32,000 nucleotides of DNA, taken from positions 1 to 32,000 of the forward strand of contig JAGBIO010000003.1 in assembly GCA_017934955.1 (NCBI GenBank). Direction: 5' to 3'. The DNA comes from Clostridia bacterium. Its GTDB lineage: Bacteria; Bacillota; Clostridia; TANB77; RGIG9151. A program made the position numbers and the translations under genes. The notes under the pieces are model-generated. The model saw only the letters and a list, made by a program, of their open reading frames with translations. It did not search any database and was not told where the DNA came from. Of the stretch, positions 1,422 through 31,553 are shown in pieces (within the stretch, counting starts at the first letter, position 1; every line of letters begins with the position of its first letter).

Positions 1422-1590
1422 AGTTACAGGTCACAATATATCGGGACGTCGAGGACGCCGTCCCCTACAATGACGGTGCAATCATCGTAGGGACAGCATT
1501 CATGCTGTCCACAGAAAAGGCAGAAAAGAAGGACAGCATAAATGCTGTCCCTACAAGGATTATGTCATTATTATAGAAAGATATACCTTG
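1422..1590. mobile_element. MITE-like element with REPIN core plus extra GC-rich hairpin module
   Basis: Left end is gttacagg. The extra hairpin cgggacgtcgaggacgccgtcccctac lies at 1442-1468. The core is GTAGGGACAGCATTCATGCTGTCC - acagaaaaggcagaaaagaa - GGACAGCATAAATGCTGTCCCTAC (1487-1554). The right arm is degenerate and runs into the ytxC-like stop codon. Confidence 0.8.
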
Positions 1591-6659: not shown

Positions 6660-6702
6660 GAGAAAACCGGACGTCATTTTTAACAAAGAAGATGCTAAAT
6701 TT

Positions 6703-6856
6703 GTTACTATTCAAACTTAAAATTATAAAAATGGCACAAATACTGTAGGGACAGCATTTATGCTGTCCACGGAAAAGGTAGAAAGTAGGACAGCATGAAT
6801 GCTGTCCCTACAATGGTTGTACCATTATTGTAGGCGATATAGTTTGATTAGTAACC
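6703..6856. mobile_element. Complete 154-bp MITE-like element with REPIN core, inserted in a terminator loop
   Basis: Ends gttactattcaaact / agtttgattagtaacc. Core hairpins at 6745-6768 and 6788-6811. Flanking direct repeats taaattt (6696-6702) and taatttt (6857-6863). Confidence 0.85.
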
Positions 6857-6877
6857 TAATTTTGAGCATCTTTTTTG

Positions 6878-7419: not shown

Positions 7420-7547
7420 GGGGCGACTATTAGTCGCCCGATGTAGAATGTGTATTGGGCGATTAATAATCGCCCCTACGTCTTTGTTGTCGCACGAGAA
7501 AAAAATTATATAGTAACAATTATACCTTATTGAGTCTGAATTGTAAC
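7420..7547. repeat. REP-like doublet with GCGA stem variant, plus an element end fragment
   Basis: Hairpins ggggcgactattagtcgccc (7420-7439) and gggcgattaataatcgcccctac (7457-7479). The terminal motif gagtctgaattgtaac lies at 7532-7547. Confidence 0.6.
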
Positions 7548-11712: not shown

Positions 11713-13617
11713 ATGGGCAAAACGTATTTTAACGATGGAATTACGGGGAATGGAAAATTGCTTGTTTCTTTTACGGATAAAGGGGAAGCGAATCGTGTTT
11801 TTTGGCCGGTGCAAGATTATGCACAGCAGATGAATCATATTTGGATGGGTTTTAAATTTGACGATTCTGTGACGAAGTTTTTGCATGAGAATTTATGGTA
11901 TGTGGAACAGTTTTATGATGGAAAAAGTAATGTATTGGTGACGAGTTACGAGAATTCGGATTTTGGCTTGAAGATTCTGCAGAAGGATTTTGCATTAAAT
12001 GATAAGGATGTATGGGTTCGTCATTATGAGGTGACCAATATTTGCGATCGTGATCTGTATTTGAGGGCGTTTTTGCATACGGATTTTATAACGGCGGACC
12101 ATAATGTTCGCAGTGGAATGATGGATTTTTCTTCGAATTGTGCGGTAATTTATAATAAGGAGCATACGGTTGCAATCGGTTCGGGCGAGAAACTTGCCGG
12201 ATTTCAGTTTGGAAATGCGATGAATGCTGCGGTTAATGATTGTTTGTATGGAAAAGATGAGATTTCCATGACGTCGGATATGGCGTTAAAGTGGGAATTT
12301 GGTGTTTTGGCTCCGAAGAAAAAAGTAGAATTCAGTGTATTTTTCTGTTTCTCTTATGATTGCTCAGATGCAATTGCTTTATTCAATGAAACAAAAAACG
12401 AGAAGGGAAACTTTTTAATAGAGTGTGAGAAGAAGTATTGGGAAGAGGAGTTTCGGAAGTATAATAAATTTGTTACGGGAAATGAAAAGGTTGATGATGT
12501 GTATTTTAAGTCGATTTTGACTTTTAAACTTTTAACAAATGCGGATACCGGGGCGATTTTGGCGGCGGTGGAAGTGGATGAGAATTTTACGCGGTGCGGT
12601 CGCTATGGGTATTGCTGGCCACGTGACGGTGTGTTTATTACAAAAGCATTTGATTTGTGTGGAATGACAGAAGAGGCGGAGCGTTTTTATACGGTCTGGG
12701 CGAAAAAGGCACAGCTTGCAAATGGGGCATGGCAGCAGCGGTATTACTTGGATGGAAAGTTGGCTCCTTCATGGGGAATTCAAATTGATGAAATTGCGGC
12801 GATTATTTATGGGGCCTGGAGTCATTTTGAGCACACGAGAAAATTGAGCTTTTTGGAGGAAATTTGGAGTTCGATAAAGCCGGCAGCGTTGTATCTGATG
12901 AATCATATAGATGGAGAGACGGGGCTTCCGATGGCGTCTTATGATTTGTGGGAAGAGCGTTTTGGGGAGCATACTTATTCGGCGGCTTCTGTGGTGGCGG
13001 CGCTACGGTGTGCGGCGTTTATGGCGGAGGAGCTTAAAGTGGATATTCCGCTTGCAAATTTGTGGAAAAAGGAAGCGGATAAGATAAAGGAAAGCATTCT
13101 TCGTAATTTATGGAATGAGGATGAAAAGAAGTTTTTAAGAGGAATCAGAACGAGATTGAATTGGTGGAATTGTGAGACGGTTTCTCTTCCAACGAATGAA
13201 ATGGGCTATCGGATGGATGTTGCGGCTGTGGATAACATTGTGGATATTAGTTTATTGGGGCTGACCATTCCGTTTGATGTGTTTGCTGTGAAGGATGAGA
13301 AGATAAAGAGAACGGTTCGGGCGATTGAAGATCGATTAGATGGTTTCCCTGCCGGCGGATTCGGGAGATATGAGTATGATTCGTATATCGGTGGAAATCC
13401 TTGGGTTATTTCGACGCTGTGGTTGGGATTATATTATGCAGAAATCGGAGAAGTTGAGAAGTGTAAGGAGAAGCTGATGTGGGCGGTAAAAAATGCGACG
13501 AAGCTTGGATTTTTACCGGAGCAGGTGGACAAGTTTAATGGCGGACCTGCTTGGATTATGCAGCTTGCTTGGTCAAGCGCGATGTTTATTATTACGTTAT
13601 ATGCGTTAAAGAAATAA
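11713..13617 (+). CDS. Glycoside hydrolase family 15 (glucoamylase/glucodextranase/trehalase-like), cytoplasmic
   Basis: Motifs YGYCWPRDGVF and SYDLWEERFGEHTYS are typical of the GH15 (alpha/alpha)6 domain. I prefer the ATG at 11713 (GGAGG 8 nt upstream) over the track TTG at 11653. No signal peptide. Confidence 0.85.
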   Translation: MGKTYFNDGITGNGKLLVSFTDKGEANRVFWPVQDYAQQMNHIWMGFKFDDSVTKFLHENLWYVEQFYDGKSNVLVTSYENSDFGLKILQKDFALNDKDVWVRHYEVTNICDRDLYLRAFLHTDFITADHNVRSGMMDFSSNCAVIYNKEHTVAIGSGEKLAGFQFGNAMNAAVNDCLYGKDEISMTSDMALKWEFGVLAPKKKVEFSVFFCFSYDCSDAIALFNETKNEKGNFLIECEKKYWEEEFRKYNKFVTGNEKVDDVYFKSILTFKLLTNADTGAILAAVEVDENFTRCGRYGYCWPRDGVFITKAFDLCGMTEEAERFYTVWAKKAQLANGAWQQRYYLDGKLAPSWGIQIDEIAAIIYGAWSHFEHTRKLSFLEEIWSSIKPAALYLMNHIDGETGLPMASYDLWEERFGEHTYSAASVVAALRCAAFMAEELKVDIPLANLWKKEADKIKESILRNLWNEDEKKFLRGIRTRLNWWNCETVSLPTNEMGYRMDVAAVDNIVDISLLGLTIPFDVFAVKDEKIKRTVRAIEDRLDGFPAGGFGRYEYDSYIGGNPWVISTLWLGLYYAEIGEVEKCKEKLMWAVKNATKLGFLPEQVDKFNGGPAWIMQLAWSSAMFIITLYALKK

Positions 13618-13820
13618 GGGACAGCATGAATGCTGTCCGTACAGGAAGGAAGAAATGCGTTTGTAGGGACAGCATTTATGCTGTCCACAGAAAAGGCGGA
13701 AAAGCGGGACAGCATGAATGCTGTCCGTACAGGAAGGAAGAAATGCGTTTGTAGGGACAGCATTTATGCTGTCCACAGAAAAGGCGGAAAAGCAGGACAG
13801 CATGAAAGCTGTCCCTACAG
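13618..13820. repeat. Tandem array (about 2.3 x 88 bp) of REP hairpins filling the GH15-radA gap
   Basis: gggacagcatgaatgctgtccgtac recurs at 13618 and 13706 (and, with two substitutions, at 13794). gtagggacagcatttatgctgtcc recurs at 13662 and 13750. Five hairpins in total. Confidence 0.9.
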
Positions 13821-13856
13821 GAAGGAAGACTGTAAAATAAAACGAAGGAGGTTCTT

Positions 13857-15224
13857 ATGGCGGTAAAGGTTAGCAGTATGTTTTTTTGTAACAATTGTGG
13901 TTATGAATCTCCGAAATGGCTTGGGAAATGTCCGGCGTGTAATGAGTGGAATACCTTTGTGGAAGAGAAAGTGACAAAGGATAAAAAGACGGGTTTGGTG
14001 CGAGAGCAAAGTGACGCGAAAATTGTGAAATTAAAGGATATCCAAATTGAGTTGGGACAGCGTTTTGAGACCGGGTTTTCTGAGTTGAATCGTGTTTTGG
14101 GCGGTGGTTTGACGAAGGGGTCATTGACTTTGGTTGGTGGTGATCCCGGAATTGGAAAGTCTACTTTGATTTTGCAAATGTGTGATAAAATTCAATGTGA
14201 CGGAACGGTTTTATATATTTCCGGAGAAGAGTCTGGAAGCCAGATTAAGATGAGGGCGGAACGTCTTGACATCAATAATGAAAAGATTTTGTTTTTGGGA
14301 GAAACGGATATAAATTTGATCGCGGAGAAGTTAAAGGAGAATAAACCGGAGTTATTGATTATTGATTCGATTCAGACGATGTACGATCCGACGATGGAGT
14401 CAACGGCGGGGAGCGTTGGTCAGGTAAGAGCGGTTACCGGTCGGTTTATGGAAATTGCGAAAAAACAGGGTATTACGACGATGATTATCGGGCATGTAAC
14501 GAAGGAAGGGGCAATCGCGGGTCCTCGTGTTTTGGAGCATATGGTGGATACGGTGCTGTATTTGGAGGGAGAACGGTATTTCTCTTATCGTATCTTACGT
14601 GCGGTAAAGAATCGGTTTGGTTCGACGAATGAAATCGGAATTTTTGAGATGAAGGAGTCGGGTTTGGCGGAGGTTACCGATCCGACGCAGATTATGATTT
14701 CTGAGAATAAAAATGCGGCAGGTTCGGCGGTTATCTGTACGTTAGAGGGAACACGACCGATGTTGGTGGAGTTGCAAGCGTTGGTTTCTACGACGCCGTT
14801 TGGAATGCCGAGACGTATGGCGACGGGAGTGGATTATAACCGTGTGACGCTGTTAACAGCGGTTTTGGAGAAGAAGACAGGGCTTAATTTGTATAATCAA
14901 GATATTTACTTGAATGTCGTTGGCGGAATTCGCTTGAATGAGCCGGCAGTGGATTTGGGTGTTGCGGCGTCTGTCATTTCGGGATTTCGAAATCGACCGA
15001 TTAAACCGGGTGGCGTGATGATTGGTGAGGTTGGTTTGACGGGAGAAGTCAGAGGTGTCAGCATGATTGAGAAGCGGATTTATGAGGCGGAAAAAACCGG
15101 ATTTCGGTATTGTGTGATTCCCAAAAGTAACTATAAAAATTTGGAGAATAAATTTCAAATTGAGATAATTGATGTGGAGAATTTACATGATTTGATGGAA
15201 AAAGTATTCTGCGATGAGCGATAG
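13857..15224 (+). CDS. radA: DNA repair protein RadA/Sms
   Basis: Zinc finger CNNCGYESPKWLGKCPACNEWNTF, Walker A GDPGIGKST, KNRFG motif (AVKNRFGSTNE) and a Lon-like C-terminal domain. SD gaaggagg present. Confidence 0.95.
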   Translation: MAVKVSSMFFCNNCGYESPKWLGKCPACNEWNTFVEEKVTKDKKTGLVREQSDAKIVKLKDIQIELGQRFETGFSELNRVLGGGLTKGSLTLVGGDPGIGKSTLILQMCDKIQCDGTVLYISGEESGSQIKMRAERLDINNEKILFLGETDINLIAEKLKENKPELLIIDSIQTMYDPTMESTAGSVGQVRAVTGRFMEIAKKQGITTMIIGHVTKEGAIAGPRVLEHMVDTVLYLEGERYFSYRILRAVKNRFGSTNEIGIFEMKESGLAEVTDPTQIMISENKNAAGSAVICTLEGTRPMLVELQALVSTTPFGMPRRMATGVDYNRVTLLTAVLEKKTGLNLYNQDIYLNVVGGIRLNEPAVDLGVAASVISGFRNRPIKPGGVMIGEVGLTGEVRGVSMIEKRIYEAEKTGFRYCVIPKSNYKNLENKFQIEIIDVENLHDLMEKVFCDER

Positions 15225-15225
15225 A

Positions 15226-15249
15226 GGACAGCATGAATGCTGTCCGTAC
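15226..15249. repeat. Solo REP hairpin 1 nt after the radA stop
   Basis: ggacagcatgaatgctgtcc + gtac. Confidence 0.8.
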
Positions 15250-17081: not shown

Positions 17082-17110
17082 GTAGGGACAGCATTTATGC
17101 TGTCCTTTTG
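17082..17110 (+). terminator. REP hairpin followed by a T-run, probable carD terminator
   Basis: gtagggacagcatttatgctgtcc followed by ttttg, 17 nt after the carD stop. Confidence 0.55.
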
Positions 17111-17146
17111 CGTATACAATAGAAAATATTGATTCAAGCCTTCTTT

Positions 17147-17173
17147 CGGGACGTCGAGGACGCCGTCCCCTAC
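17147..17173. repeat. Solo GC-rich REP variant (cgggacgtcgaggacgccgtcccctac)
   Basis: Identical to the module at 1442-1468 and near-identical to 31378-31404. Confidence 0.8.
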
Positions 17174-19256: not shown

Positions 19257-19410
19257 GTTACTATTTAGACTATATCTCTTAAAATAATGGTACAATCTTT
19301 GTAGGGACAGCATTTATGCTGTCCGCAGAAAAGGCGAAAAGCAGGACAGCATAAATGCTGTCCCTACAGTGTTTGTGCTATTTTTATAATTTTAAGTCTG
19401 AATGGTAACC
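19257..19410. mobile_element. Complete 154-bp MITE-like element with REPIN core
   Basis: Ends gttactatttagact / agtctgaatggtaacc. Core 19301-19366. Flanking direct repeats tttatta (19250-19256) and tttattt (19411-19417). Confidence 0.85.
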
Positions 19411-20444: not shown

Positions 20445-20603
20445 GTTACAGTTCAGATTGAAATTTTGTATCTAAAAATATTGTCGGAATGTGGCTTGTA
20501 GGGACACAATTCATTGTGTCCTAATTCCAATGTCAGGTTATTTTGTGGACACAATAAATTGTGTCCCTACAGGGTTTGTGCTGACTCTATAAATTGAATC
20601 TAA
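20445..20603. repeat. MITE-like element, ACACAA stem subfamily, right end degenerate
   Basis: Left end gttacagttcagattg. Hairpins gtagggacacaattcattgtgtcc (20498-20521) and ggacacaataaattgtgtccctac (20547-20570) are separated by a 25-nt spacer. Confidence 0.75.
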
Positions 20604-20638
20604 TCTATAAGATATTTTATCATATCTATATTAAAAAC

Positions 20639-25287: not shown

Positions 25288-26816
25288 TTTAGTTTCTCCT
25301 TTTCCGATGATTTTGATGACGTCAAGGCGAGTGCCGCCATAATCTGTAATACGAAAGAGACAATAAAGGTGTAACGGGATTGAACTTCCATTAACATAAG
25401 CGCACCTTCAAATCCGAGGAGCAGTAGTCCCATCAGGCAAGTGATGTCATTTTTTCTGTATCGGATACTGTAAATAAATACACCAATAAGAAGAGTACAG
25501 GAATAGATACTTGAAAGTATATAAAGCGTGGTAAGGGAGTTCGGATATTGGTCTAAAATAGATTTAGACCAATAAATTCCGGCAAAATCATTTTGCGCCC
25601 AAATTGCGTGTGTTTTTGTAACAAAGAGCAGTAAGATTTTTTCTGGATTTTGTGTTAAACGTTCAATAAGACGTGTTTTAATTTCTTTTTTTATTTCTTC
25701 TAAATTTCCGTTTTTCTCAAAATAAATATTCTGATCTTCCGCTGAGAAAGTTCCATTCGTTTCAAAGTTGAAACCAACCAAGCAATAAATGGTATAAGGA
25801 ACGGCGCTTTTGTCTAAATAATATTTGGTTACACCGGTTTGGTAAAGGGTAACGCTGACGCTTTGAAAAATAAGGATATAGGTAACCAATAGCGTAAAAA
25901 GTGCCGATAACTTTCGTTTCTTTGTTGTATAGGAAAAATCGAAGATTTTGCCTATACAACAAAAAACGCTCCGCGAGGATGCACACTCACGCGAAAGGAA
26001 TGTTGCTGCGCAACCCGCGTTCGGCGCAGGTGTTTTGCCTTCGCAAAACACTTTTGTTCCAAATATTGTCAAAATGCCTATTCCGTATGCGGCGAGGTAC
26101 ATCGGTGCGACGCCTCGATAGAGGGAACCGACAGTAAGAAAAATTCCGGAAAGAAAAACGTAGCTTAGCATTTTCTTATGCGGTTCCGTATTTTGATATG
26201 CTTTTATTAAGAAATAGAGAGAAAGCATAAAAAACGGCATGGCGAAGTTTTCTGTAATTAAAACCGAAGAATAGGCGATTGAAGCAGGAAAAATACTATA
26301 TAAGAAGGCAGCAGCAAGCCCTGTTTTTCGGCTTTTTATCGTTTTCCCAATTCCGTAGAGAATCGGAATACAAGCGATTTGTAATAGTAAATTGATGATT
26401 TTAATTGGCAACAGCGAGCTTCCGAAGCACTTTATAATTTGTGCAAGGGTAAAAACATAAACCGTAAGGTGCGGGAAACGATGAAAATAGGATCCTTCTT
26501 GAAATGGAGAATTCCCGGTTGCCAAATCAATTGCGGAACGATACATCACTTCGTAATCACTTACCGGTACCGTAGGAACGTTTGTAATCCATATCGCACG
26601 TAGTACAACTCCTAAAAGCAGGAGAACGGTAAGTAAAATAATTGTCTGTCTTTTTGAGGGTTCTTTTATTTGAAAGAAAAGTAACCCGAGAAAAATGACG
26701 GTAGCGACGGAGGAAACAGCGATGATTATTCCGTAATTTTTAATGGCGGTATTTATGGAAAAATATAAGATCACTGCGACAAATGCAATTAAGACATAAT
26801 TAAAAAAATACTTCAT
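25284..26816 (-). CDS. GT-C fold polytopic glycosyltransferase (PMT_2/ArnT-like, GT39/83-like) carrying a 48-codon atypical insert
   Basis: Many TM helices throughout. The start is uncertain: the ATG at 26816 is preferred, and 26849 and the track start 26876 are alternatives. The stop overlaps the mltG start. Confidence 0.75.
   Translation of the reverse strand: MKYFFNYVLIAFVAVILYFSINTAIKNYGIIIAVSSVATVIFLGLLFFQIKEPSKRQTIILLTVLLLLGVVLRAIWITNVPTVPVSDYEVMYRSAIDLATGNSPFQEGSYFHRFPHLTVYVFTLAQIIKCFGSSLLPIKIINLLLQIACIPILYGIGKTIKSRKTGLAAAFLYSIFPASIAYSSVLITENFAMPFFMLSLYFLIKAYQNTEPHKKMLSYVFLSGIFLTVGSLYRGVAPMYLAAYGIGILTIFGTKVFCEGKTPAPNAGCAATFLSRECASSRSVFCCIGKIFDFSYTTKKRKLSALFTLLVTYILIFQSVSVTLYQTGVTKYYLDKSAVPYTIYCLVGFNFETNGTFSAEDQNIYFEKNGNLEEIKKEIKTRLIERLTQNPEKILLLFVTKTHAIWAQNDFAGIYWSKSILDQYPNSLTTLYILSSIYSCTLLIGVFIYSIRYRKNDITCLMGLLLLGFEGALMLMEVQSRYTFIVSFVLQIMAALALTSSKSSEKEKLK
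25917..26060. repeat. GC-rich multi-hairpin segment lying in frame inside the GT-C gene (second repeat family)
   Basis: Four hairpins: ttgttgtatagg-N17-cctatacaacaa (25921-25961), cgcg..cgcg, ctgcgc..gcgcag and gtgttttgc-cttc-gcaaaacac. The 29 nt at 25933-25961 recur at 28079-28107 with 2 mismatches. Confidence 0.6.
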
Positions 26817-27835: not shown

Positions 27836-28107
27836 TTATTGTATAGGTCAGAATTAAATTTATAGAAATAGCATAAATAGTGTAGGAACAGCATTTATGC
27901 CGTCCACAGAAAAGGCAGAAAGCAGGACAGCATTGCGGACGTAACACCGTGAGTGTAACGAACGGCTTGTACGTCCTATACAAAGAAACTCCAAGAACGT
28001 AGTGATTGGGAAGTTTCGACTGTTAATGCTGTCCCTACAATGGTTGTACCATTATTGTAGGAGATATAGAACAGTAACAAAAACTGAAGATTTTGCCTAT
28101 ACAACAA
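27836..28107. repeat. Composite: family-2 hairpin interrupted by a MITE/REPIN copy that itself carries a 90-bp nested insert
   Basis: ttattgtatagg (27836-27847) | MITE 27848-28078 | aaaaactgaagattttgcctatacaacaa (28079-28107). The second REP hairpin is split at 27933/28024. Confidence 0.8.
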
Positions 28108-29022: not shown

Positions 29023-29078
29023 GGACAGCATAAATGCTGTCCCTACGAAGTTCTATACAGACAGCATTTATGCTGTCC
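29023..29078. repeat. REP hairpin pair in the LtaS-like/UbiA intergenic gap
   Basis: ggacagcataaatgctgtccctac (29023-29046) and gacagcatttatgctgtc (29060-29077). The pair ends 4 nt from the upstream gene stop. Confidence 0.85.
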
Positions 29079-29082
29079 GATT

Positions 29083-30998: not shown

Positions 30999-31116
30999 GT
31001 TACAATTCAGAATCTAATTTATAGAGGAAGCACAAACGCTGTAGGGACACAATTCATTGTGTCCCCAAAATAGGCAGATGCTTAGAATTAGGACACAATG
31101 AATTGTGTCCCTACAA
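30999..31116. repeat. MITE-like element, ACACAA stem subfamily, right arm truncated
   Basis: Left end gttacaattcagaatc. Hairpins at 31041-31064 and 31091-31114. The spacer is the diverged reverse complement of the one at 20522-20546. Confidence 0.75.
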
Positions 31117-31140
31117 TAGATTGAGAAACATTTAATGTAC

Positions 31141-31270: not shown

Positions 31271-31342
31271 GTGCTAGCTTTTTTATGATACTACAAGTTA
31301 AGATTTTTTTCAAGAGATAAATTGAAATTTGTGTTGGAAAAT

Positions 31343-31536
31343 GTTACAGGTTAGACTCAAAATTGTCTCAAATATATCGGAACGTTGGGGACGCCGTCCC
31401 CTACAATGTTTGTACAGGTATTGTAGGGACAGCATTTATGCTGTCCTGCTTTTCTGCCTTTTCTGTGGACAGCATGAATGCTGTCCCTACAATGATTGTG
31501 CCATCATTGCAGAAAAATGTAGTATGAATAGTAACC
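31343..31536. mobile_element. Complete 194-bp MITE-like element with extra GC-rich hairpin module and inverted core
   Basis: Ends gttacaggttagact / tatgaatagtaacc. Extra module at 31378-31404. Core at 31421-31490 with spacer tgcttttctgccttttctgt. Flanked by a perfect direct repeat ggaaaat (31336-31342 and 31537-31543). Confidence 0.85.
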
Positions 31537-31553
31537 GGAAAATGTTACACACA

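Follow-up and report, generated by a model that had tools for sequence, protein, structure and literature searches.

The elements analysed here are most likely fossil apical-spacer inversions in a composite of an IS66-type MITE and a GTAG-REP doublet, carried by a Clostridia host. Their anatomy, the target duplications beside them, the match of their termini to an insertion sequence (IS) and the two polarities of their spacer were all observed directly. As the cause of the flips we favor, at a probability of roughly 55%, inversion between the perfect inverted REP arms, either by template switch or by intramolecular recombination. The preliminary description of this DNA had overlooked what the parts are, namely a GTAG-REP doublet core within a shell that is an IS66-type MITE flanked by 8-bp target duplications.

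The window, a 32-kb stretch of DNA, comes from the MAG of an uncultured Clostridia bacterium (locus tags J6M02_), a gut genome, in which it is part of a contig of 56.6 kb. Its genes include a 5S rRNA, two tRNAs, ytxC, radA, disA, carD, dnaG, rpoD, mltG and cell-envelope genes, and searches of the 32 kb with Pfam and NCBIfam found no transposase or recombinase gene. We analysed a further 39.8 kb from another contig of the same genome (loci L130, L133, L134 and L137), giving a total sample of 72 kb from one genome. The plus strand of both stretches is strongly G-rich, with a skew of +0.1 to +0.4; on the basis of this skew and of the 5S rRNA gene on the plus strand of the window, we took the plus strand as the leading strand.

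The core of the elements is built from a REP unit, a 20-nt palindrome (GGACAGCAT-NN-ATGCTGTCC), one end of which carries an unpaired tag, GTAG or GTAC. In doublets with the tags outside, two inverted REPs enclose a conserved, non-palindromic spacer that in its S+ form (ACAGAAAAGGCAGAAAAGCA) is 84-90% purine. The 11 complete S-type doublets have spacers of 13-20 nt (19-20 nt in the core of the composite elements), and the spacer of a sub-family with the stem GGACACAAT, S', is 25-27 nt long and homologous to S. The shell arms around the core are about 45 nt long and fall into two diverged types, A (..TTATAAAAATGGCACAAATACT) and B (..TATATCG-CCTACAAT..ATT, which includes a palindromic tag-to-tag linker). 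Arm B* is arm B plus a 20-nt GC hairpin, a module that is REP-like in its own right and bears a CTAC tag; B arms (E3, E6 and E4) and B* arms (E2, E8 and L130:7440-7615) differ only by the precise presence or absence of this hairpin between TATATCG and CCTAC. The features are listed below in window coordinates, with a strand where one applies, followed by those on the second contig.

428-547: E1, a shell with one degenerate central hairpin (a REP-like palindrome between GTAGG and CCTAC) and without a spacer.
1423-1598: E2, B* (GC) arm, REP (loop TC), S+, REP (loop AA) and B' arm, with the core probably flipped within its shell; the parts are outer terminus 1423-1443, GC hairpin 1444-1463, palindromic linker 1464-1486, REP 1487-1510, spacer 1511-1530, inverted REP 1531-1554 and right arm 1555-1598, a degenerate terminus that overlaps the ytxC stop codon.
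6703-6855: E3, majority arrangement; arm A 6703-6744, REP 6745-6768, S+ 6769-6787, inverted REP 6788-6811 and arm B 6812-6855, flanked by the repeats CTAAATTT (6695-6702) and CTAATTTT (6856-6863).
7520-7547, minus strand: a solo MITE-terminus fragment (GTTACAATTCAGACTC...).
13611-13850, plus strand: a shell-less tandem array between a GH15 gene and radA, with an 88-nt period and 97% identity; its unit is inverted REP, linker, REP and S+, and it holds two S+ spacers (13687-13706 and 13775-13794).
15226-15249, minus strand: a solo REP with a GTAC tag, immediately 3' of the radA stop codon.
17082-17173, plus strand: two solo hairpins, a REP at 17082-17105 and, at 17146-17173, a CTAC-tagged GC hairpin that is identical to 1441-1468 at 28/28 positions.
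19257-19409: E4, arm B 19257-19300, REP 19301-19324, S+ 19325-19343, inverted REP 19344-19367 and arm A 19368-19409; the shell is reversed and the spacer is nonetheless S+ on the plus strand; the element lies between the repeats CTTTATTA and CTTTATTT.
20445-20612: E5, of the REP' sub-family (stem GGACACAAT, 25-nt spacer S'); its plus-strand order of B-like arm, S'- and A (reverse complement) is the majority arrangement after reverse-complementing.
27846-28078: E6, majority arrangement A, S+ (27906-27924) and B, with a truncated left terminus and a 91-nt insertion (27934-28024) in the loop of the second REP.
29023-29079: a doublet with tags inward and without a shell, inverted REP, CTACGAAGTTCTATAC and REP.
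30999-31120: E7, of the REP' sub-family, A, S'+ and a truncated right arm.
31343-31535: E8, B* (GC) arm, REP (TT), S-, REP (GA) and B' arm; GC hairpin 31380-31399, REPs 31423-31446 and 31467-31490 and spacer 31447-31466, flanked by the 8-bp repeats TGGAAAAT (31335-31342) and CGGAAAAT (31536-31543).
L134:12086-12178: a coreless shell.
L134:1640-1720: a half shell.
L137:17997-18057 and L137:20871-20938: shell-less cores.
L133:2820-2960: a tandem array with a 51-nt period.

The shell carries terminal inverted repeats (GTTACnnnTCAGAC; consensus termini GTTAC(A/T)(A/G)(T/G)TCAGAC). E3, E4 and E8, the three elements that keep both termini intact, each lie between 8-bp direct repeats that agree at 7/8 positions, for which the null expectation is about 0.001 each; no 8-bp target duplication was seen at truncated or composite copies of the shell. 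The same genome holds a complete IS of 1,700 bp (L130:1-1700) with a single 501-aa DDE_Tnp_IS66 open reading frame, and the shell termini agree at 9-12 of 13 nt with its inverted ends (L130:1-13 and 1688-1700, GTTACAGGTCAGA). IS66 and ISBst12 elements are known to produce 8-bp repeats, and the terminal repeats of ISDge4, of the ISBst12 group, are GTAACTGCTCAGCA and GTGACTACTCAGCA (PMC12898284, PMC3281130). Because of the 8-bp duplications and the terminus match to an IS66-family IS, we assign the shell, as far as sequence can tell, to the IS66-type (ISBst12-like) MITEs, the whole element then being a DDE-type MITE with an interior built of REP hairpins. Judging from the match of the termini, the 1.7-kb IS66-family element presumably mobilizes the shell in trans.

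The core is a GTAG-tagged REP doublet with its tags outward, similar to REPINs and BIMEs. GTAG-REPs are defined as short (20-40 bp) imperfect palindromes that have a 'TY' loop and, at one end, a conserved GTAG tag left unpaired (PMC3733652, PMC3333891), and repertoires of REPINs and BIMEs have been described (PMC3337134, PMC3333891); we base the assignment on the fit of the tag, the TY loop, the extragenic abundance and the occurrence of singlets, doublets and arrays to these published descriptions. In 54 of 55 REP copies the loop reads TT or TC from the tag side. The hairpin GGACAGCATNNATGCTGTCC has 19 matches in the window at up to two mismatches, compared with none in 100 shuffles, and the density of REPs amounts to 21 hairpins in the 32 kb of the window and 35 in the 39.8 kb of the second contig. 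All of these hairpins lie between long open reading frames, several immediately after stop codons, and they occur as singlets, as inverted doublets with the tags outside and a set spacing, as doublets with the tags inside, and as tandem arrays with periods of 88 and 51 nt. The alternation of REPs, the recurrent linkers and the tandem amplification are those of a BIME-like mosaic. In one of the relatives discussed below (L051), the spacer between GH15 and radA holds degenerate hairpins only. An Rfam search matched no family, returning only sub-threshold matches resembling miRNA precursors on the long hairpins. When folded as single strands, E3 (-39.7 kcal/mol, z = -10) and E2 (-34.2 kcal/mol, z = -7.9) both place the spacer in an apical loop, and the whole unit as single-stranded DNA is predicted to form one hairpin with a stem of about 65 bp and the spacer as its apical loop.

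The clearest case of a reversed core is the pair E3 and E4. When E4 is reverse-complemented, its right arm pairs with arm A of E3 at 38/42 positions (90%) and its left arm with arm B at 36/44 (82%), compared with 29-30/44 (66-68%) for the cross pairings. With the arms aligned in this way, the 19-nt spacers agree at only 1/19 positions, as opposed to 13/19 when both are read on the plus strand. Spacer replacement by its reverse complement between inverted repeats, the sequence signature of template switching, is what the comparison of E3 with the reverse complement of E4 displays, the process itself being presumed. The preliminary description had claimed that the arms of these two elements align while their spacers have opposite polarity, which our alignment bears out.

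Its parallel claim on E2 and E8 stands in its details, with a more cautious conclusion. Both elements do carry the GC-rich 20-nt hairpin in the left arm, in the same orientation relative to the arm (GGACGTCGAGGACGCCGTCC at 1444-1463 and GAACGTTGGGGACGCCGTCC at 31380-31399) and placed between ..ATATATCG and CCTACAATG.., and their cores are mutual reverse complements: 1491-1550 differs from the reverse complement of 31427-31486 at 1 of 60 positions (59/60 identity in opposite polarity, both loops included) and from 31427-31486 read directly at 20 of 60. The reverse-complementary match extends over 92 nt (1465-1556 against 31421-31512) with six mismatches. The limits given for E2 needed adjustment, with the start moved from 1422 to 1423 and the right arm extending beyond 1590 to about 1598, into the ytxC stop codon. 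The general claim that the core occurs in both orientations relative to its shell is unambiguous for E3 and E4 and probable for E2 and E8.

The reserve over E2 and E8 comes from a reading in which they are whole elements lying in opposite orientations and the GC hairpin came or went, through separate events, in one or the other of two equivalent B-type arms. All arms of this pair are indeed of type B, the difference between B and B* is precisely the 20-nt hairpin, and this hairpin also occurs solo at 17146-17173. Nor are the arms decisive once the hairpin is set aside: one gives 36/44 E2 bases (36/60 with the 16 extra indel bases of E8) against 30/45, and the other 27/41 against a poorly registered 28/44, while the inner left arm of E2 agrees with the inner right arm of E8 at 23/28 positions by eye and with the inner left arm at 20/28. 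Against this, the terminus GTTACAGGT and the succession of AATATATCG, GC hairpin and CCTACAATG are common to both left arms; the two right arms share a TTTCT variant where the hairpin is absent; and two independent events would be needed in place of one inversion. Independent insertion of the module into either arm, named in the preliminary description as what would undo its reading, is therefore less parsimonious for E2 and E8, and it fails for E3 and E4, whose distinct arms A and B (90% and 82% against 66-68%) leave the reversal of the spacer unexplained. We regard this reading as unlikely.

The tally of arm type against spacer polarity that the preliminary description had proposed for all genomic copies was carried out over the 72 kb, with each copy written so that the purine-rich strand of the spacer is on top. 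Among 12 orientable copies, nine have the majority arrangement and three are flipped. The arrangement A, S+ and B or B* is found in E3, E6, L130:7440-7615, L134:10733-10830, E7, E5 and L133:5968-6085, and also in E8 if B* marks the downstream side as it does in L130:7440-7615. The flipped copies are E4 (B, S+, A), E2 (B*, S+, B') and an S' unit at L134:10853-10940. Since they fall in different sub-families, the flips are independent events.

Inversion between the REP arms, our preferred reading, would need little beyond the structure of the element itself. A non-palindromic spacer between two REPs that form perfect inverted repeats of 20 bp or more could be replaced by its own reverse complement with the structure of the element unchanged and no dedicated enzyme required. 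The replacement could occur through a replication template switch across the hairpin, or through intramolecular recombination between the REP arms in a hairpin or cruciform, and would have happened independently in a minority of lineages, those of E4, of E2 and of a single member of the REP' sub-family. Where replication switches template at short inverted repeats, it leaves a signature of spacer inversion with homogenization of the arms (PMC8604942). The REP loops of E4, TT and AA, are perfectly complementary, and those of E3 are TT and GA; a single asymmetric template switch from a reversed majority copy would give E4 (TT, S+, AA) both its inverted spacer and a homogenized adjoining arm, where a symmetric exchange would require an extra point change. 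Recombination between inverted repeats, already suggested in the preliminary description, is the most economical cause of the two polarities. The reading also fits the other rearrangements of the family, in which the core was deleted between direct CCTACAATG repeats, the GC hairpin was lost or units were amplified in tandem. Random reversible inversion alone leaves two things unexplained, the strand bias of the spacer considered below and the location of both flipped S-family copies in reversed shells.

Mapping of the breakpoints, which had been proposed to lie inside the hairpin stems, was partly informative. Both REP loops co-invert with the spacer between E2 and E8, which confines the breakpoints of this pair to the tags, the inner arms or the outer half of each stem (1465-1499 and 1542-1556). 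For E3 and E4 the loop dinucleotides are worth only 1 bit each, too little to place the breakpoints. We discarded the loops as decisive breakpoint markers, TT/TC being a simple polymorphism locked to the GTAG tag, and likewise the loops of the inner-arm hairpins, which are too noisy as a map because the sequences are palindromic.

That the polarities were mis-assembled in a repeat-rich MAG is a concern worth weighing, given the short-read source of the genome and the breaking of k=31 Logan contigs at every element. The core with both REPs spans only 68 nt, however, well within 150-nt reads and k=141 k-mers, so that its polarity should be supported by reads; different assemblers agree at 100% identity over 10-14 kb of REP-rich overlap; and the flipped copies carry substitutions of their own in the spacer and arms. 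We consider such an artefact very improbable.

Just as hard to credit is a programmed or ongoing flip-flop, whether a site-specific invertase switch or an isomerization of hairpin termini of the parvovirus or poxvirus type. Two mirror-image isomers of an asymmetric center between inverted repeats do exist, which is what had led the preliminary description to liken the elements to the flip and flop states of hairpin termini. The likeness does not hold: the loci are internal to the chromosome, among radA, disA, dnaG, rpoD and other housekeeping genes and with 8-bp duplications, and are not ends of linear replicons. An active switch fares no better, with no recombinase gene in the window and one polarity per locus in every assembly compared. 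Five assemblies of the strain are 100% identical over overlaps of 2.7-14.4 kb and a second strain, RGIG8597, is 99.96% identical; at the assembly level, six assemblies have the same polarity at all three doublets they share. The flipped loci of the window are covered by the MAG contig only, the k=31 Logan contigs breaking at the repeats, and the other assemblies of the species all represent the same strain (100%) or are 99.96% identical. To our knowledge, invertible segments are far longer than 19-60 nt. The flips look like fixed, old inversions, part of a damage-and-repair history of hairpin DNA, as opposed to an ongoing switch.

The polarity of the spacer is also skewed with respect to the chromosome. 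S+ lies on the G-rich strand in 10 of the 11 complete S-type doublets (binomial p = 0.012), or in 9 of 10 with the array counted once (p = 0.021), while non-ORF DNA on that strand is only 53-58% purine. The shells point both ways, four forward and three reversed, and the flipped S-family cores, E2 and E4, both lie in reversed shells. In the seven shelled copies, polarity agrees with the replication strand in 6/7 and with the shell in 5/7, an association with strand that is not significant (Fisher p = 0.14). These counts hint at a spacer polarity tied more closely to the replication strand than to the shell. Transcription was rejected as the determinant, as E2 and E6 lie between minus-strand genes and yet have S+ on the plus strand.

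Such a skew would be expected if the doublet were a REPIN-like mobile module in its own right, cut and rejoined as a single strand at CC|TAC by a Y1 (RAYT/IS200-like) enzyme acting on the lagging-strand template, which would fix its polarity by strand. Shells would then be inserted either way by the DDE transposase, and a backwards shell would hold a seemingly flipped core. Besides the strand count, the even mix of shell orientations and the reversed shells of E2 and E4, this reading can draw on shell-less cores (13611-13850, L137:17997-18057 and L137:20871-20938), on the coreless shell at L134:12086-12178 and on the inverted-REP tag GTCC|CTAC, which fits the TnpA-REP cleavage consensus CC|TAC (PMC3333891). 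Coupling to the lagging strand is documented for this enzyme class (PMC3333891, PMC6006769), and Group 1 RAYTs are present in Clostridia (PMC5581495). We found no cognate Y1/HUH transposase (RAYT), however, either with Pfam and NCBIfam in the window or in a scan of all loci (72 kb of the genome) for open reading frames with HUH and Y-x2-NP motifs. E8 is an exception to the strand rule, the REP' sub-family divides 2:2 by strand and partial spacer relics 1:2; the seven shells give the non-significant p already mentioned; and the coreless shell is more simply a deletion between two 9-nt CCTACAATG direct repeats. Strand-specific insertion is thus a possibility that we hold only tentatively. More broadly, the core may be a strand-polar module whose purine-rich strand is kept leading by single-strand cut-and-paste, directional inversion or selection, regardless of the shell, which we think rather doubtful.

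The family seems to have expanded recently in this lineage, since relatives with RadA proteins 82-93% identical (L051-L057) have no family copy in 8-21 kb of syntenic DNA. Searches farther afield returned little. In public genomes, the pattern ATGCTGTCCN{19,20}GGACAGCAT was too loose: among the 47 matches listed, 46 were due to chance and only one (L023) was real. A pattern of the doublet with S+ had no matches in JGI metagenomes. The bare 22-nt REP was found there at 70 loci or contigs of 34-65% GC, nearly all of them single hairpins, and these 70 loci had no recurrent neighboring gene and no open reading frame with an HUH/Y1 motif. IMG/VR gave two matches, both irrelevant, and a literature search with the sequence string of the repeat retrieved only unrelated primers.

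REPs and REPINs are mostly known from Proteobacteria, and their movement and relation to other small mobile elements are debated. In this Clostridia family, the REP doublet is built into a MITE presumably mobilized by a transposase, and the non-palindromic spacer provides a built-in orientation marker, which symmetric REPINs lack. With such a marker, the rate of central inversions in hairpin-forming repeats becomes countable within one genome, as does polarity against replication strand, a tie predicted by single-strand transposition. Only the strand polarity of the spacer could lift the family beyond the ordinary: if the strand-polar module is real, a flip would mark two nested mobility systems, one an IS66-type MITE and the other of the Y1/REPIN type, with the inner one sensing the direction of replication. 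In practical terms, short-read assemblies are interrupted at almost all copies of the element.

The isomers of parvoviruses and poxviruses occur at the ends of linear replicons, are produced by hairpin transfer or terminal resolution at each replication, and coexist in both forms. Our elements resemble the flip/flop of parvovirus/AAV ITRs and poxvirus telomeres in that an asymmetric inner palindrome is inverted relative to an outer stem, but they occupy internal chromosomal loci with one form each. As for BIMEs, the orientation of their linkers relative to REP types has been described as fixed. The family shares with E. coli BIMEs (Ton-Hoang et al., PMC3333891) the mosaic of alternating REPs and inverted REPs with recurrent linker motifs, the tandem amplification (here with 88-nt and 51-nt periods) and CC|TAC at the inverted-REP tag; it differs in its REP sequence and linkers, and no REPtron was seen in the 72 kb. 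With IS66/ISBst12 elements and their MITEs it has in common terminal repeats of the form GTnACnnnTCAG, the 8-bp duplication and the presence of a full-length single-ORF IS in the genome, but only about 13-14 terminal nucleotides are shared with the IS, the interior consisting of REP hairpins and not being IS-derived.

The closest parallels to the core are REPINs and GTAG-REP dimers (PMC3116915, PMC3337134, PMC3733652), with which it shares the 20-nt palindrome, the GTAG tag, the TY loop, the inverted pairing with tags outside, a short conserved spacer, the potential to form one long hairpin, and an abundant extragenic distribution in which singlets, doublets and arrays occur side by side. Dimers with GTAG outside have been termed HH (Di Nocera et al., PMC3733652), and two configurations of doublet have already been described for the GI REPINs of P. 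fluorescens (Bertels & Rainey, PMC3116915, PMC3337134). Here, by contrast, the host is an uncultured Clostridia bacterium (the text of the 2013 REP survey includes no Firmicutes; PMC3733652), no RAYT was found in the 72 kb examined, and the doublet sits inside a DDE-type MITE shell with target duplications. Its non-palindromic, purine-rich spacer, present in both polarities relative to asymmetric flanks, is a feature absent from the REPIN papers (PMC3116915, PMC3337134, PMC3733652).

For the flips themselves, the nearest counterparts are template-switch spacer inversions (PMC8604942, PMC8794818), in which a spacer likewise becomes its reverse complement between inverted repeats, with homogenized arms as in E4 and with recurrent, independent events, and the hairpin-loop inversions of plastid genomes (PMC12371153), which are also small inversions between inverted repeats. 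Compared with both, the inversions described here lie inside a multicopy mobile element, and their polarity is skewed with respect to the replication strand.

We observed an exact 13-nt direct repeat, GGAAAATGTTACA, at positions 31336-31348 and 31537-31549 of the window, on either side of the composite element E8 (31343-31535), in which an IS66-type MITE shell surrounds a REP-spacer-REP core. The left copy takes in E8's left target duplication together with its terminus, and the right copy follows the right terminus of the element, leaving a second GTTACA in the flank. A shell that lacks the core altogether is present in further sequence of the same genome, and another composite element, E6 (27846-28078), carries additional DNA within its core:

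L134:12086-12178, coreless shell, reading terminus, GC hairpin, single palindromic linker, terminus
Window 27934-28024, unique 91-nt insertion, precisely within the second REP's loop in E6

The coreless shell has a right half almost identical to E8's right arm, and its structure fits a deletion that removed the core between two direct repeats, CCTACAATG. The insertion in E6 has its own hairpin (GGACGTA...TACGTCC), and no second copy of it was found in the 72 kb comprising the window and the additional sequence. E6 itself appears to be lodged within a further palindromic repeat, in its loop (TTGTATAGG ... CCTATACAA; window 27839-27847 and 28096-28104). This repeat is found intact, with a 17-nt loop, at L137:17742-17776 and once more at window 25925-25959.

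REPs, the 20-nt tagged palindromic hairpins that form the cores, also occur in tandem:

Window 13611-13850, REP array with an 88-nt period and 97% identical copies, immediately upstream of radA
L133:2820-2960, same-orientation REP cluster in the groEL/groES gap
L134:16095-16290, same-orientation REP cluster
L137:14600-15000, same-orientation REP cluster

The three clusters, with periods of 51-62 nt, are located within operons. On the G-rich strand, most inter-REP linkers in the window and contig 2, including the spacer strand S+ and others, are 65-90% purine, compared with 53-58% for non-ORF DNA overall. The tag-to-tag linker of the radA array, GTACAGGAAGGAAGAAATG, resembles a ribosome-binding site followed by ATG. 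Separately, one of the three clusters was called as a 164-aa ORF.

In a relative's contig (L051, RadA 93% identical), the only REP-like hairpins in the GH15-radA spacer (L051:4185-4260, vs window 13600-13860) are two degenerate ones. The elements of the window were not found elsewhere in this contig, the end of which carries a different hairpin variant, GGTCAGTATGAATGCTAACCGTAC. A 22-nt hairpin identical to that of the window, GTAG/GTAC-GGACAGCAT-NN-ATGCTGTCC, is present in 70 JGI metagenome contigs (L058-L127) from many environments, with GC contents of 34-65%, and is nearly always single per locus. Across these 70 contigs, the hairpin loci have no adjacent gene in common, and no motif of a Y1 transposase was found close by. 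A 5.5-kb contig (L131, the same as L023) assigned to 'Spirochaetales bacterium RGIG8597' (GCA_017624275.1) is probably mis-binned in that MAG, because it is 99.96% identical to a contig of the Clostridia MAG to which the window belongs.

The genome of the window also contains a complete insertion sequence:

L130:1-1700 (ENA ERZ28018929 k141_77502), 1.7 kb, its left end being the exact contig start

With a single transposase ORF of 501 aa and long terminal inverted repeats, within which lies an internal hairpin, this element belongs to the IS66 family and is ISBst12-like.
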